In this document: in pieces, positions 12,229-50,531 of the stretch
How the letters are laid out: every line of letters begins with the position of its first letter
Position numbering within the stretch: position 1 is the stretch's first letter
Assembly: GCA_037968415.1 (NCBI GenBank)
Contig: JBBKVM010000014.1
Span: forward strand, 11,954 to 75,953
Length of the DNA stretch: 64,000 bases
From: Bacteroidia bacterium
GTDB taxonomy: Bacteria; Bacteroidota; Bacteroidia; AKYH767-A; JBBKVM01
Reading direction: 5' to 3'
The notes under the pieces: model-generated
What the model was told of the DNA's origin: nothing
Databases searched by the model: none
The model's input: only the letters and a program-made list of their open reading frames with translations
Position numbers and translations under genes: made by a program

Positions 12229-12918
12229 TTATTCGCGTTCATCAACAATACTGCTTTCGCTGTCACTGATGTTATCGACTTCCGATTCGTCAAGCACATC
12301 GCCCAATTCAACGGTCAAATCATCGGCTTCTATTTCCGCTTCTTCGACATCTTCTTCATCACCCAGCAACGCAGCTATGCCTGCTTCATCATCCAGTATC
12401 CCTTCAGTAATACTTCCAAGCGCGGCTGTGCCATATTGTTTTGGGGCAATTCCTTCACTGTTTATACAAATAGGGTACGTAATGTTTGGGTCAGCTTCAA
12501 TTATTATTTTGCGGAGCTCAATGTAGAAAGTCCAATTAGCATTATAATCAAACACATAATATAACTTTTGATGCGGATCGATGATAAATGAAAACATTTT
12601 AGTTTCACGCATGGCCAGCGGAGTAGGGGGTTCAGCTACTTTGGCCCTGTCATCGTCACGCAAAACAGGCTGTTCAGGTTTTTTAACTTTATCAATCACC
12701 AAGGCAATCTCTTGACCTTTTTTCCAGTGGTCATCACTCATGAAAAAAGAGGCCGGATGGGCTGAGTCAAAATTAATACTTTGTTGAATTGCGTTATGGA
12801 AATCTTCAAAAGTTTGATTTGACTTTATATCAATTGTTCGCACAATTTCGTCATGATCTTCAAACACAACTCTAAAACGGTAAACTGATGGCATAATTTG
12901 TTTATTAGAAGTATGCAA
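12229..12918 (-). CDS. Hypothetical protein, possibly of the plasmid pRiA4b ORF-3-like family, with a strongly acidic C-terminal tail
   Basis: N-terminal VYRFRVVFEDHDEIVRTIDIKSNQTFEDFHNAIQQSINFDSAHPASFF resembles the PRiA4_ORF3 pattern. The last ~60 aa are about 50% D/E. Confidence 0.55.
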   Translation of the reverse strand: MHTSNKQIMPSVYRFRVVFEDHDEIVRTIDIKSNQTFEDFHNAIQQSINFDSAHPASFFMSDDHWKKGQEIALVIDKVKKPEQPVLRDDDRAKVAEPPTPLAMRETKMFSFIIDPHQKLYYVFDYNANWTFYIELRKIIIEADPNITYPICINSEGIAPKQYGTAALGSITEGILDDEAGIAALLGDEEDVEEAEIEADDLTVELGDVLDESEVDNISDSESSIVDERE

Positions 12919-12959: not shown

Positions 12960-14372
12960 TTATTTTTGAACTATCGTCAAGCCCATTTTGGAGGCCATTT
13001 TCAGCATAAAAGCATGCGCCTCTTCGTGGCTGTTGTTTATTTTACCATCCAGTATCGCATCACGAATGGCGTTTTTTATTTCGCCCACTTCGCGACAAGG
13101 TTGCAATCCAAATGTGAACATTATTTCTTCACCCGTTACTGGTGGTTGCCAGTTGCGTACTTTGTCTTTTTCTTCTACTTCAATTAGCTTTTGTTTCACC
13201 ACTTCAAAGTTTTTCATGTAGCGCTTTACCCGCGTTTCGTTTTTTGAAGTGATGTCGGCATGGCAAAGCACCATCAAATCGTCAATGCAATCGCCTGCAT
13301 CAAACAATAGCCTGCGCACAGCCGAGTCGGTCACATTGCTTTGGGCAAGTACGATGGGGCGTAAATGAAGTAATACGAGTTTCTGTACGTACTTCATTTT
13401 TTCATTCATAGGCAACTTTAACTTGCGGAAAATGTGTGGCACCATCCGGGCACCTTTATCTTCATGTCCATGAAAGGTCCACCCGGTCACAGGGTCAAAG
13501 CGTTTGGTTGGAGGCTTGGCAATGTCGTGCAATATAGCCGCCCACCGCAGCCACAAGTCATCCGTTTCCTTGGCAATATTATCCAGTACTTCGAGGGTGT
13601 GGTAGAAATTGTCTTTGTGGCCTTTGTTGTCTATGTATTCTACACCGTGCAGCGCGGTGAACTCCGGAAATATGATGTGTAGTAAACCGCTATCGAAGAG
13701 TAACTTAAAACCCACTGAGGGTTTTTTTGCAAGAATAATCTTATTCACTTCATCAATGATGCGTTCGGCCGACACAATTTTAATTCGTTCTTTGTTATTT
13801 GTGATCGCTTCAAATGCTTCGGTTGTAATGGTAAAATCGAGTTGGGTGGCAAATCGCACAGCGCGGATCATGCGCAGCGGATCGTCAGAAAAAGTGATAA
13901 CAGGATCGAGAGGTGTGCGGATGATTTTGTTTTCAATATCGTTGATACCACCAAAAGGGTCTATTAACTCGCCCAAAGTGGCCTCGCTAAGGCTCAGCGC
14001 CATCGCATTGATGGTAAAGTCGCGTCTGTTTTGGTCATCTTCGAGGGTGCCGTTTGCTACAATGGGCTTCCGGGAATCTTCGCTATAAGATTCCTTACGT
14101 GCACCCACAAATTCTATTTCCATATCGCGGTGCCGCAACATGGCGGTGCCAAAATTCTTGAATACAGTCACGCGTGTGTTTTTGCCAATGCGCTTGGCCA
14201 CAGCGTTTGCAAGAGCTATTCCGTTGCCGGCAACTACTACATCTATGTCTTTGCTGGGACGCGATAAAATAATGTCACGCACAAAACCACCTATCACGTA
14301 GGCTTGCACACCCAGCGAATCTGCTGCATGGGCAATAATTTTAAATACGGGATGAGAAAGGTGCTGTTTCAA
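12960..14372 (-). CDS. CCA-adding enzyme / tRNA nucleotidyltransferase with HD domain
   Basis: GGFVRDIIL...DIDV polymerase-beta motif, [10 protein letters not shown] and a C-terminal HD region. Confidence 0.88.
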
Positions 14373-14447: not shown

Positions 14448-15386
14448 TTACCACTTTTTCTTTTCTGCAGGGTCTTTACGCTTTAGGGTGAACACACGCG
14501 AAATATTAAATCCAAAATGGATGTCTCCATTGGTGATGTCACCGGTTGTTTCGGTGATAAACATCTTTTCAATCATGGCACGCGAGTTACTCACATGCAA
14601 TTGGAAAACGTGTCCTCCGGTTTCGATATCGATACCAAGGGATGCCGAATTGAAAACTTCTTTGGTCACCACTTGATCGGGCAGGAGGTAAAAATACTCA
14701 CCATTGATGGTGATGCTCTTTGTAATCTTTTGTCTAAAACCAGCCCCCATTGCATAGATGTCGTTTTTGTCGAGCGTGGTGGGCACCAGATTGTGGTGAA
14801 CGTATGTAGGAGTAAGTTGTAGCGATAAGCCATCATTTATTTTGCGTGCTAGCAATAGCTGATGCGTATAAGACAAACGTGAAGAGAAAAAGTTTTCGCG
14901 CTCGGGTTCGGCCCAACGAAGAGAATTAAGCGCCACGCTGGTAAAATATACCAGACTTACAGGCATTTTTCTGCCACCAGTGCTCTGTCTAAGCAGTTTG
15001 TATTTGCCAAAACCGTCAAATGTTTTTTCGAATGTACTTCGGCCTACGCCCACTGTAAGTCTGTCTAACACGCCATATTCAAATCCCAAGCGCATAGTGG
15101 CCTGGTCGAGACCAAAAAATTCGTAGGGCCCAGCGTTGAGCCTGCCAAATCTGTGGCCAATTAAAAATTGCAATACACCAGCAGCTGGTAACTCTATGGA
15201 GTGGCCGGTAACAATGCGGGTGGTTTTAAAAGTTGCAGTGGTGTAATTAATTTCCGTACTGTCTTCTGTGGCATCCTGCAGCATATTCATCAAATCGTCC
15301 TGCGCCTGTGTTAATTGGGGAATGATACTCAGTGCTCCGATCAAACACACCAATGAAATCCATTTTGCAAGTATTCTTTTATTCAT
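14448..15386 (-). CDS. Secreted/outer-membrane hypothetical protein (DUF5777-like, recalled from memory)
   Basis: Signal peptide and beta-rich sequence. Immediately downstream of YceI on the same strand. Confidence 0.5.
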   Translation of the reverse strand: MNKRILAKWISLVCLIGALSIIPQLTQAQDDLMNMLQDATEDSTEINYTTATFKTTRIVTGHSIELPAAGVLQFLIGHRFGRLNAGPYEFFGLDQATMRLGFEYGVLDRLTVGVGRSTFEKTFDGFGKYKLLRQSTGGRKMPVSLVYFTSVALNSLRWAEPERENFFSSRLSYTHQLLLARKINDGLSLQLTPTYVHHNLVPTTLDKNDIYAMGAGFRQKITKSITINGEYFYLLPDQVVTKEVFNSASLGIDIETGGHVFQLHVSNSRAMIEKMFITETTGDITNGDIHFGFNISRVFTLKRKDPAEKKKW

Positions 15387-15408
15387 TCTTATAATTTATT
15401 GAGACTGA

Positions 15409-15972
15409 TTATTTATTGATGAGTTCATATTTCATCACTACCGAAACTTCCACTTGCCTTGCAATATTGTCGCGTACGATGCGAGGCACCGTGATCTGAT
15501 AATCCTGCACTACTACCGGGAATGAAGCTGTTGCGCTCACTTGCCCACCAGCCACTGTGATGGTGGCTTTTACTATTTGTTGGTGTATCACTCCATGTAT
15601 GGTCAGATCGCCTAGCACGGTTGCATCATATTTGCCATCTTTTAGGAAATTGATGTCTTGCAGATTGGTAATCCTGCCTGTAAATGAAGCGGTGGGATAC
15701 TTATCCGACTCCATGTATTTTTCATTGAAGTGCTCCTGCATTGCAGCCCGTTCAAAATAAAAACTTTTTATCGTGGCTATCACACGCATCTCTCCTGTTT
15801 TTTTATCAATGATGCTTGCCACCTGACGATTGGTTGCTTCAATATTTTCGAGTGGAGCCTCCGATACAAATTTGATGGTGCCTGTGCGAGTGAATAACTT
15901 ATCCTGCGCCATGGCTTGTAAGCACATGCCGGTGAGAAAAAGCGTAAAAAATATTTTCAGATTTATGCCCAT
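15409..15972 (-). CDS. YceI-family periplasmic polyisoprenoid-binding protein
   Basis: Signal peptide, about 187 aa, lipocalin-like YceI pattern (GTIKFVSEAPLENIEATN…TITVAG). Confidence 0.85.
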   Translation of the reverse strand: MGINLKIFFTLFLTGMCLQAMAQDKLFTRTGTIKFVSEAPLENIEATNRQVASIIDKKTGEMRVIATIKSFYFERAAMQEHFNEKYMESDKYPTASFTGRITNLQDINFLKDGKYDATVLGDLTIHGVIHQQIVKATITVAGGQVSATASFPVVVQDYQITVPRIVRDNIARQVEVSVVMKYELINK

Positions 15973-15973
15973 T

Positions 15974-16384
15974 TTAGTTTTCCGGGGCTCCTTTTGCTAC
16001 CCATGTACTGATTAGTTGAAGCTCGCACGCACTCAATGGCGATTGGCTTGGGGGTGGCATGTTTTTTAAATCAATGACCCTGTTTTTAAAAGTGCCATCA
16101 TCTATTTTGGCTTTTACCTGTGCATAAGTGGTAAGCAGGGGGTTGGCCGCGCCATTGCCATGACACCCTGATATTGCGCAATTTGTATCTATTAGAAGTT
16201 TAATTTTTCCATTATATACATTGGCCGTAGTGTCGCAAGCTGGACCTGGTCCATACAATTCTTCTTCGTTATCATAATAGCATCCTTGCAGCATTGCAGT
16301 AACCAAAAACACAAAGAATACTTGTCCGAAGCCTACGAGAAATTGATGATGAGAAGAAATATTTTTGAAAGTACGGATTGTCAT
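15974..16384 (-). CDS. Lipoprotein with planctomycete-type cytochrome-c-like (PSCyt1-like) signature and a CAISGCHG motif
   Basis: Lipobox AMLQGC. C-terminus has …CAISGCHG…KNMPPPSQSPLS…ISTWVAKGA, matching the MPPP / W..GA hallmark of PSCyt1 domains. Start chosen at MTIRTF rather than the longer ORF. Confidence 0.55.
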   Translation of the reverse strand: MTIRTFKNISSHHQFLVGFGQVFFVFLVTAMLQGCYYDNEEELYGPGPACDTTANVYNGKIKLLIDTNCAISGCHGNGAANPLLTTYAQVKAKIDDGTFKNRVIDLKNMPPPSQSPLSACELQLISTWVAKGAPEN

Positions 16385-16538
16385 AAAGTGAATTTCAGAT
16401 TTAAAAAGGTGTCTTCTCAAATTTAATCAATTTATCTGTGTTGCTACATGTATTTGGAATTAACATTCCAGCCAAAGTGTTGACAGCGCACATCATTTTG
16501 TGAAATATTGGCATAAATTTACAGGCTAATCTATTGCT

Positions 16539-16970
16539 ATGAAAAAGACGTTTGTGATTCTGTTTGTGCTGGTCATTGTAATTGCATCAGTGGCCGGATA
16601 TTTTATGTACACCCGTTCGCACGATAATCTTGCAAGTGCCAAGCCTGATTTTGAGTTGAGCGCTGGCGAATTGCTGGAGGAGTTTGCAACTAACCAGGAT
16701 GCGGCCAACGCACGCTATCTCAATAAAGTGATTGAGGTGCGCGGAGTGGTGGATGATGTGATGGAGGATCAAAGTATGATCACGGTCCGCATTGTGGAAC
16801 CCGGTGATTACAATGGAGTAAGCGCCCAGTTTATAGAGCAGAACAAAGCGGATGCAGTAATTGCGCCTAATGGAAGCGATATAAAAGTGAGAGGGCTGTG
16901 CAGTGGCTATACGGGCGATGACATGATGCCCGGTGATGTAGTTCTGACAAATGCAGTAATTATTCCCTGA
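16539..16970 (+). CDS. Membrane-anchored OB-fold protein (tRNA_anti-like family)
   Basis: N-terminal TM helix followed by an OB-fold pattern (…AANARYLNKVIEVRGVVDDV…). Confidence 0.55.
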   Translation: MKKTFVILFVLVIVIASVAGYFMYTRSHDNLASAKPDFELSAGELLEEFATNQDAANARYLNKVIEVRGVVDDVMEDQSMITVRIVEPGDYNGVSAQFIEQNKADAVIAPNGSDIKVRGLCSGYTGDDMMPGDVVLTNAVIIP

Positions 16971-17972
16971 TTACAAAGGGATAGTAGCCAGCAGCGATTC
17001 AGTTTTTAATTGAACTGCACAATTGAAATGACCCAGGGGACATTTGTTAAATCCATGCAGCCCACAAGGCTTGCACGCGGGCCGGGGCATCGACTCTATC
17101 ACAAATTTTTTGGTGGACAATGGTCCAAAACCAAATTCAGGTATGGTGCTGCAATACACCGCTGTTACGGGTGCATCTATTGCTGAGGCCATATGCAGCG
17201 GGGCTGAATCATTAACATAATTCATCGCTGCATTTTTCATGAGAGCTGCAGATTGCAGCAAGCTGAGTTTGCTCGCCAAATTGTGTACGTCCTGTCGTGT
17301 TACATTTTCTTTGATCTGGTCACAGGCCACATTATCGGCCTTGCTGCCCAACAGGTACACAACATATTTTTCAGGAATGCTGCTGATAAACTTTTGCCAT
17401 TGCGCTGCGGGCAACTGCTTGGAAAACCATACAGAAGTTGGCGCAATGCATATGTAGGGGCTTGATTGCAAGTCGGCCACCGAAGCCACATCTTTGGCAG
17501 AAGGATATAACCGGGGAAGGGCAGAGGCAGGGTTTCCCAAATGAGCTATCAGTTGTAGGTTGCGTTCAGTTTCGTGTACAGCAGGCTCGCCCGTGGCCGC
17601 CACATAGTGGGGTACGCGTACATCGAAAAATCGCGACATCGGATTTTTATCAAAACCTATCCTGTTTTTGGAGCCAGACAAAGCTGTGAGCAGGCCCGTA
17701 GCAACAAACCGCTGCAAATTGATTACATAATCATATTGGTTGCGCCTAACGTTTTTTATCAACTTCATCAGTCCCGCGTACTTGTTGTGACTTTTGTCCC
17801 AAACTATCACGTTTCGTATAAACGGATGATCCTTAAATAACGACTCATTGCCTTTGCGCACCAGCACATCCAGCGCTGCATCCGGAAAATCGCGATGCAG
17901 TTTTTCCAGCACAGCTGTGGCAAGTATGGCATCGCCAATAAATGCTGTTTGTATGATCAGAAACGATTGCAT
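16971..17972 (-). CDS. Glycosyltransferase family 9 (LPS heptosyltransferase-like)
   Basis: About 333 aa with the GT9 pattern (LIIQTAFIGDAILATA…GNDSAPLHMASA). Confidence 0.85.
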   Translation of the reverse strand: MQSFLIIQTAFIGDAILATAVLEKLHRDFPDAALDVLVRKGNESLFKDHPFIRNVIVWDKSHNKYAGLMKLIKNVRRNQYDYVINLQRFVATGLLTALSGSKNRIGFDKNPMSRFFDVRVPHYVAATGEPAVHETERNLQLIAHLGNPASALPRLYPSAKDVASVADLQSSPYICIAPTSVWFSKQLPAAQWQKFISSIPEKYVVYLLGSKADNVACDQIKENVTRQDVHNLASKLSLLQSAALMKNAAMNYVNDSAPLHMASAIDAPVTAVYCSTIPEFGFGPLSTKKFVIESMPRPACKPCGLHGFNKCPLGHFNCAVQLKTESLLATIPL

Positions 17973-35301: not shown

Positions 35302-35378
35302 GGACCCGTAGCTTAATTGGATAGAGCATCTGACTACGGATCAGAAGGTTGGGGGTTCGACTCCCTTCGGGTCCACCA
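35302..35378 (+). tRNA. tRNA-Arg (anticodon ACG)
   Basis: Hand-folded cloverleaf: acceptor GGACCCG/CGGGTCC, anticodon loop CTACGGA, T-loop TTCGACT, 3' CCA encoded. Confidence 0.85.

Positions 35379-50443: not shown

Positions 50444-50531
<88 letters not shown>

Follow-up and report, generated by a model that had tools for sequence, protein, structure and literature searches.

In Escherichia coli (yceI-yceJ) and in Burkholderia (BcnA/LcoA), a gene for a YceI lipocalin is linked to a gene for a haem electron-transfer protein. In the BcnA/LcoA system, the partner is an inner-membrane di-haem cytochrome b561. This cytochrome is proposed to re-reduce the lipocalin-bound quinone, which quenches lipid peroxyl radicals (PMC9113575). 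Elsewhere, c-type cytochromes are coupled to outer-membrane barrels. The MtrCAB, PioAB/MtoAB and Geobacter Pcc complexes enclose 8–12 haems in barrels of 20–26 strands. Cyc2 of iron oxidisers is a single polypeptide, with a 16-strand porin and the sequence PXFAR[QK][TY] 5 amino acids (aa) upstream of CXXCH (PMC8406198). Here, we describe a locus with likenesses to each. It lies in a window of 64,000 nucleotides (nt) from a Bacteroidia bacterium (GenBank assembly GCA_037968415.1, contig JBBKVM010000014.1, positions 11,954 to 75,953). Positions given below are those of the window. The locus encodes a small lipoprotein with a haem-type motif, a YceI lipocalin, a predicted barrel protein of family DUF5777 and an OB-fold protein. 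It is a reduced copy of a conserved Bacteroidota envelope module, found in hundreds of species, whose invariant core is the small lipoprotein and DUF5777.

Three of the genes share the minus strand. The gene for the small lipoprotein (15974–16384; 136 aa counted from an ATG in the list of open reading frames, ORFs) is followed by those for YceI (15409–15972; 187 aa) and DUF5777 (14448–15386; 312 aa), both identified using Pfam. The stop-to-start gaps are 1 nt between the lipoprotein and YceI genes and 22 nt between the YceI and DUF5777 genes. The fourth gene is divergent, on the plus strand, and encodes the tRNA_anti-like OB-fold protein (16539–16970; 143 aa; Pfam PF12869).

Gene neighbourhoods were compared in two samples. 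The first was obtained by scanning for the peptide CYYDNEE, with one genome per species. This identified 501 relatives, from which 80 loci were kept; nearly all of their record titles name Bacteroidota lineages. The ORFs of these loci were classified with hidden Markov models (HMMs) built for the analysis, and 57 loci had enough flanking sequence. The second sample was anchored on DUF5777 in metagenomes, and the 36 loci with at least 3.5 kb upstream were counted. Both 80-locus samples are biased. DUF5777 adjoins the small lipoprotein gene at 57 of 57 loci in the first sample, and the small lipoprotein gene adjoins DUF5777 at 36 of 36 in the second. These counts exclude chance adjacency of the two genes. 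Together with highly significant family matches, the conserved synteny also indicates that the ORFs of the cluster are not chance occurrences.

Other members of the module come and go. In the first sample, YceI (55/57), the OB-fold protein (53/57) and a two-domain cytochrome lipoprotein (50/57) are encoded on the same strand, in few permutations. In the second, YceI is present at 29 loci or more and the two-domain cytochrome at 26. All-against-all clustering of ORFs from about 160 loci identified no further universal partner; it returned only lineage-specific neighbours (Usp, M50 peptidase, TonB_C and citrate synthase) and antisense-ORF artefacts. In marine Flavobacteriales, the order is tRNA_anti-like, small lipoprotein, YceI, DUF5777 and two-domain cytochrome lipoprotein. 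At 33 of the 57 loci, the cluster is preceded by genes for a YceI paralogue, a Reg_prop/Y_Y_Y/His_kinase sensor (about 900–1100 aa) and a LytTR response regulator. Lentimicrobium loci consist of two cytochromes and the barrel only. The closest relatives of the window (68% identity in DUF5777) lack YceI and have the small lipoprotein, DUF5777 and a divergent OB-fold gene. At the closest, locus L169, the OB-fold gene is divergent as in the window; elsewhere it is mostly inside the same-strand cluster. The window carries a four-gene form of the module, with one haem-type motif, the OB-fold protein, YceI and DUF5777; the YceI paralogue that accompanies the kinase elsewhere is among the members that it lacks.

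An earlier note, made from the window sequence alone, had described an exported three-gene cluster on the minus strand. The ORF coordinates agree with the genes and gaps that it gave, signal peptides are evident in all three proteins and Pfam places YceI (51.9 bits) and DUF5777 (320 bits) above cut-off. The note had also let its proposal stand or fall by conserved co-occurrence, which the locus counts strongly support. Two of its assumptions need revision. The three genes are not a complete unit; the divergent OB-fold gene belongs with them, and most relatives add the two-domain cytochrome, often with the kinase set. Likewise, YceI and a cytochrome are not a constant pair, since YceI is dispensable in Lentimicrobium and in the closest relatives of the window.

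We turn to the core proteins. Export signals were assessed by eye from the sequence. The small lipoprotein has a 34-aa signal peptide ending in a lipobox-like sequence, LQG↓C. The lipobox cysteine, Cys35, is encoded at 16282–16280 on the minus strand, as are the other positions of this gene. The mature protein begins with an almost invariant sequence, CYYDNEEELY (16282–16253). The haem-type motif, CAISGCH (C69–H75; 16180–16160), has the form C-x4-CH, and a candidate distal ligand, Met109, is found in the sequence MPPP (16060–16058). When homologues were aligned, the lipidated cysteine with CYYDNEEELY was invariant, as was C...CH, and Met-Pro-Pro was nearly so. Over 142 distinct orthologues, the N-terminal motif reads C-Y-Y-D-[N/K/V]-x-E-x-L-Y. 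Two additional cysteines, C50 and C120, are invariant and may form a disulfide. Surface lipoproteins of Bacteroidota carry a lipoprotein export signal (LES), C-X-K-(D/E)2 or S-D-D-D/F-D/E, which occupies +2 to +6 and is position-critical (PMC5080379). In CYYDNEEE, an aspartate is at +4 and the acidic run is at +6 to +8; it is LES-like but shifted. Conservation of CYYDNEEELY far exceeds the need of a sorting signal.

The spacing of the haem-type motif differs between orthologue sets. C-x4-CH is found in 70 of 81 window-related orthologues. In DUF5777-anchored orthologues, CxxCH predominates (50 of 57), with three instances each of C-x3-CH and C-x4-CH. Hence, spacing is lineage-dependent. Both CX3CH and CX4CH are documented haem c motifs (PMC11492766; cytochrome c3, PMC10454114). 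The Cys...Cys-His motif, with Met-Pro downstream of it, is retained in 140 of 141 orthologues.

The earlier note had read a planctomycete-type cytochrome c signature in this protein, and had expected Pfam to return YceI, DUF5777 and PSCyt1. The first two matches were obtained. PSCyt1 (PF07635, cut-off 22 bits) did not match the window lipoprotein at E ≤ 1, and NCBIfam contributed nothing further on the cluster proteins. What remains of the signature is a weak resemblance, with a sub-threshold Cytochrome_CBB3 match and the motif C-x4-CH. Eight orthologues gave only sub-threshold matches to Cytochrome_CBB3, PSCyt1 (14–21 bits) and PccH. Hence, on the nine small lipoproteins scanned, Pfam does not capture the domain family. 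A connection is provided by the two-domain partner. This exceeds the PSCyt1 threshold (38–47 bits), and its HMM matches the window lipoprotein with an E-value of 1.3e-25. In marine Flavobacteriales, the partner is 236 aa long and scores 38 bits for PSCyt1 and 29 bits for Cytochrome_CBB3. In both locus samples, its first domain has C-x4-CH and its second CxxCH.

A sequence profile search of the PDB gave marginal matches only: PccH and, in hydrazine synthase alpha, the haem c domain. In each alignment, a two-residue gap falls within C-x4-CH. The structure model of the small lipoprotein adopts a PccH-like cytochrome c fold. A profile search of 1.84 billion representatives identified 10,109 relatives of the domain (about 10,000 at 50% identity). 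The sequence relationships place the domain in a large, undescribed family of c-type cytochrome domains resembling those of PccH and PSCyt1. We consider it very probable that the small lipoprotein is a c-type cytochrome with a single haem and a variant site for its attachment. Haem binding, with ligation by Met109, is inferred. Many relatives carry the domain in tandem, with 2 to about 8 copies per lipoprotein (220–1830 aa); these arrays (for example, in proteins P0144, P0147, P0149, P0152 and P0193) mix CxxCH, C-x4-CH and C-x5-CH.

DUF5777 (PF19089) is matched over its full length (positions 1–247 of 247) with 320.3 bits and an E-value of 8.9e-96, against a cut-off of 23.1. The protein has a type-I signal peptide, TQA↓QD, with glutamine after the cleavage site. 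At 90% identity, this large family comprises at least 8000 clusters. The model is a 12-stranded membrane β-barrel. The closest folds are FapF, KdgM, NanC, a COG4313 channel, autotransporter and intimin barrels, and LpxR. Some of these hold polypeptide inside the lumen. A sequence search of the PDB found no relative of DUF5777.

For an outer-membrane protein, DUF5777 is unusually conserved, with a mean column identity of 61% and 58 invariant positions. Median identity to the window protein is highest for DUF5777 (52.8%), about 44% for YceI and the small lipoprotein, and 27.7% for the OB-fold protein. Conservation was mapped on a topology that presumes both termini to be periplasmic. Polar, glycine-rich faces of the strands, which presumably line the lumen, are more conserved than hydrophobic, lipid-facing ones. 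Loops, too, exceed the lipid faces in conservation, with the first outer loop the most conserved of them, and the periplasmic turn DIETGGH is invariant. The pattern is consistent with specific contacts made by the interior and rims of the barrel. Such conservation, together with the invariant acidic tether of an obligate partner, motivates the hypothesis that the tether docks with the barrel.

Fusions of cytochrome and barrel, of the 'Rosetta stone' kind, were considered and rejected. Protein P0029 (462 aa), from a 1.8-kb contig, is DUF5777 with a second, partial tandem copy of the barrel, and may be a duplication or an assembly artefact. The long matches to the cytochrome profile are tandem cytochrome domains.

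The YceI protein of the window (PF04264; 51.9 bits, E-value 1.4e-13, cut-off 23.7) has a type-I signal peptide, AMA↓QD, again with glutamine after cleavage. It misses the NCBIfam equivalog for E. coli YceI (22 versus 232 bits). Hence, it belongs to the family but is not orthologous to the E. coli protein. A YceI structure in the PDB was matched weakly by sequence (5ixg; E-value 0.0084), and the conserved family core is retained, including ALMQEHFNENY. The protein is closer to the paralogues encoded within the cluster than to those linked to kinases (43% versus 35% identity). By sequence, it is lipocalin-like and of the proximal paralogue type. In the kinase-linked arrangement, the YceI paralogue overlaps the Reg_prop/Y_Y_Y/His_kinase sensor by 4 nt, and LytTR follows (L057:828-4899, L086:1274-5414 and L020:540-4455). 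This coupling suggests a lipocalin-assisted sensor.

The OB-fold protein (61.2 bits to PF12869, E-value 1.1e-16, cut-off 23.5) has an uncleaved, hydrophobic N-terminal anchor for the inner membrane. Three cysteines are present in most homologues and one of them in the window copy; no histidine is conserved. Its sole relative in the PDB is 3f1z, an uncharacterised 'nucleic acid-binding lipoprotein'. A literature search gave no match for tRNA_anti-like proteins together with YceI. Beside some clusters (L001:4755-5582, L048, L061, L064, L074 and L076) is a gene for a plastocyanin/azurin-type cupredoxin with a type IX secretion C-terminal domain. This protein is a possible surface electron carrier.

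What might the module do? Our preferred interpretation is that it is an outer-membrane-associated device for haem and quinone electron handling, serving redox protection or exchange; we give this a probability of about 40%. Briefly, Cys69, Cys74 and His75 of the small lipoprotein would bind one haem c, and Met109 would be the distal ligand. The acidic tether, CYYDNEEELY, would dock at the barrel, on or within its conserved, charged lumen, so placing a single redox centre at the outer membrane. Electrons would then move between periplasmic cytochromes and a lipophilic redox ligand, either carried by YceI or held in the outer membrane. This ligand would probably be an isoprenoid quinone, of the kind that the lipocalin carries in other bacteria. 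The periplasmic cytochrome would be the two-domain partner, where present; in the window, the general cytochrome c pool would take this role. The net effect would be redox protection or exchange at the outer membrane, following the logic of lipid-peroxyl detoxification by YceI and cytochrome b561, and of minimal porin-cytochromes.

Several observations weigh against this interpretation. The window lipoprotein has C-x4-CH where a c-type cytochrome is expected to have CxxCH, and its Cytochrome_CBB3 match, at 17.2 bits, is below the cut-off of 27. The motif loop is the part of the model with the lowest confidence; the predicted local distance difference test (pLDDT) score is below 50 for residues 70–73. 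A Foldseek search returned no match, and no paper in the literature mentions DUF5777. The 64-kb window contains no two-domain cytochrome, Reg_prop kinase, LytTR or other ORF of at least 100 aa with CxxCH. The module does not encode a quinol-oxidising inner-membrane partner. Finally, no cytochrome fits inside a 12-stranded barrel, and the membrane cannot be spanned by one or two haems alone.

The earlier note had proposed a periplasmic module for quinone and haem electron handling, or for lipid stress. These functions are plausible. The location is another matter; DUF5777 is predicted to form a 12-stranded barrel in the outer membrane, which would anchor the module there, so that it is not purely periplasmic. 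The contrast that the note drew with the enterobacterial pairing of yceI and cytochrome b561 is apt (PMC9113575). Taken as a whole, its interpretation is partly supported, and its description of the locus was correct but incomplete.

In logic, BcnA/LcoA is the nearest studied system; in architecture, the nearest analogues are Cyc2 and the porin-cytochromes. As in BcnA/LcoA and yceI-yceJ, a YceI lipocalin gene is linked to one for a haem electron-transfer protein. Unlike in BcnA/LcoA, the haem partner is a c-type-like lipoprotein, an outer-membrane barrel and an OB-fold protein are added, and YceI is not a constant member. Membership of the BcnA/LcoA group was rejected; yceI has no b561 neighbour in the window, and b561 families do not recur among 160 related loci.

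Like Cyc2, the core combines one haem c motif with a small barrel, at about 380–450 aa combined, and would be a minimal alternative to the large porin-cytochrome complexes (PMC8406198). Unlike Cyc2, it consists of two polypeptides, of which the cytochrome is a lipoprotein, and its hosts are heterotrophic Bacteroidota. We rejected membership of the Cyc2 family. The genes are separate, KLLIDTN replaces PXFAR[QK][TY] upstream of the motif, the barrel is modelled with 12 strands instead of 16 and no sequence similarity was detected.

In MtrCAB, PioAB/MtoAB and Geobacter Pcc, as here, a barrel gene stands beside genes for periplasmic or lipoprotein c-type cytochromes. The module differs in that its barrel is predicted to have 12 strands and its haem motifs number one to three overall. 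Hence, it is not a haem wire through the membrane. Membership of the Mtr/Pio/Pcc group was rejected on the same barrel size and on the single haem-type motif of the window, in which no other ORF of 100 aa or more has CxxCH. PccH of Geobacter sulfurreducens (PDB 4rlr) shares 18% identity with the small lipoprotein. Unlike the latter, PccH is soluble, has CxxCH and lacks a barrel partner or lipid tether. Autotransporter β-domains, intimin and FapF are 12-stranded barrels threaded by a segment of the same chain; in contrast, threading by a lipoprotein tether is purely hypothetical here.

A bolder version of the redox proposal takes up this hypothetical threading. The core would be a split, minimal porin-cytochrome, in which the tether threads or plugs the 12-stranded barrel and one haem sits at, or across, the outer membrane. 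This haem would exchange electrons with substrates in the outer membrane or outside the cell, for example Fe(II), quinones, humics or lipid radicals. The quinone shuttle would be YceI, and the periplasmic relay would be the two-domain cytochrome. We consider this version unlikely. If true, many aerobic and anaerobic Bacteroidota would possess an outer-membrane redox machine that has so far gone unrecognised.

We ranked four other explanations below the redox module. Transport of a hydrophobic molecule would make DUF5777 a channel for uptake or export of a lipid, carotenoid, quinone or hydrocarbon, like FadL, COG4313 or OmpW. YceI would carry the molecule through the periplasm, and the cytochrome-like lipoproteins would have accessory or regulatory roles. 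We doubt that this is the function. A different concern is whether the small lipoprotein of this lineage binds haem. The two-residue insertion that creates C-x4-CH could be inactivating, leaving a degenerate, haem-less domain whose only role is structural, as a partner of the barrel or its plug. Such a loss would fit the non-canonical motif, the sub-threshold scores of all Pfam cytochrome matches, the low model confidence in the motif loop and the absence of a second cytochrome from the window. However, both cysteines, the histidine and Met-Pro are still invariant in members with C-x4-CH. This spacing is kept in domain 1 of the two-domain partner across the phylum, and in tandem-domain relatives, and CX4CH is a known haem c motif (PMC11492766). 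Loss of haem is rated somewhat less probable than the transport function.

The remaining two explanations appear least likely. One is haem or iron trafficking, in which the barrel would be a channel operating via conserved histidines, YceI and the lipoproteins would bind haem and the OB-fold protein would be a CcmE-like chaperone. The basis is fold analogy alone. Among about 160 loci, there is no recurrent TonB-dependent receptor, ABC importer or haem oxygenase. Conservation of the OB-fold protein is low (median identity 27.7%) and includes no histidine, and carriers of the module are mostly free-living taxa. The other explanation makes the module the sensory input of the adjacent two-component system, detecting envelope redox state or a lipophilic signal and not acting as an effector. 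The YceI paralogue, sensor kinase and LytTR genes are indeed immediately upstream, on the same strand, at 33 of the 57 loci. However, kinase and regulator are missing beside the cluster at the other 24, in the window and in its nearest relatives. The adjacency would fit equally well a two-component system that merely regulates the operon.

The surroundings of the cluster were also inspected. The small lipoprotein and OB-fold genes are separated by 154 nt (16385–16538), which must hold the promoters of both transcription units. A TAAATTTG box at 16425–16418, on the minus strand, resembles the Bacteroidetes -7 element. A complete Bacteroidetes promoter (TTTG-N17-21-TAnnTTTG) was not found in the intergenic region, and no -33 TTTG is at the usual distance from the box. 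The resemblance is weak evidence for a promoter element. The box overlaps an alternative TTG start of the small lipoprotein gene at 16420, which would yield a protein of 148 aa, with 12 extra residues. Hence, the ATG at 16384 is favoured as the start. A scan of the region for sigma-70 promoters and terminators gave background levels, and an Rfam scan identified no element in the cluster region. The sole Rfam matches in the 64-kb window are two tRNA genes, at 35302–35375 and 50444–50528, both on the plus strand.

The cluster is flanked by minus-strand genes for a family 9 glycosyltransferase (GT9, heptosyltransferase-like; 16971–17972) and a CCA-adding/poly(A) polymerase-HD enzyme (12960–14372). 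Neither recurs beside the module elsewhere. Two genes downstream of the cluster, an ORF at 12229–12918 (minus strand) encodes a PRiA4_ORF3-like domain (E-value 3e-18) with a strongly acidic C-terminal tail. In the closest relatives of the window, at L169:8901-10910 and, on the opposite strand, L170:1699-3705, a gene for a Por_Secre_tail protein of about 668 aa is directly downstream of DUF5777; the window has the CCA-adding enzyme gene in this place. One locus, L084 (CAYGPM010000003.1), is from a metagenome-assembled genome labelled Hyphobacterium (Alphaproteobacteria), and its module has the same arrangement as those at L023 and L040, both Cytophagales. Most likely, the genome was mislabelled or mis-binned.

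Neither DUF5777 nor the related cytochrome domain family has a published function. The obligate pairing of a barrel with a lipoprotein bearing an invariant ten-residue tether provides a clean test case for how lipoproteins engage small barrels of the outer membrane. If the module is a redox device, a class of envelope electron-transfer or anti-peroxidation systems so far limited to Proteobacteria and metal-respiring bacteria would extend to Bacteroidota, and the partnership of YceI with haem proteins would extend to c-type cytochromes. Orthologues with CxxCH, C-x3-CH and C-x4-CH would then also constitute a natural set for understanding haem attachment by system II maturation.

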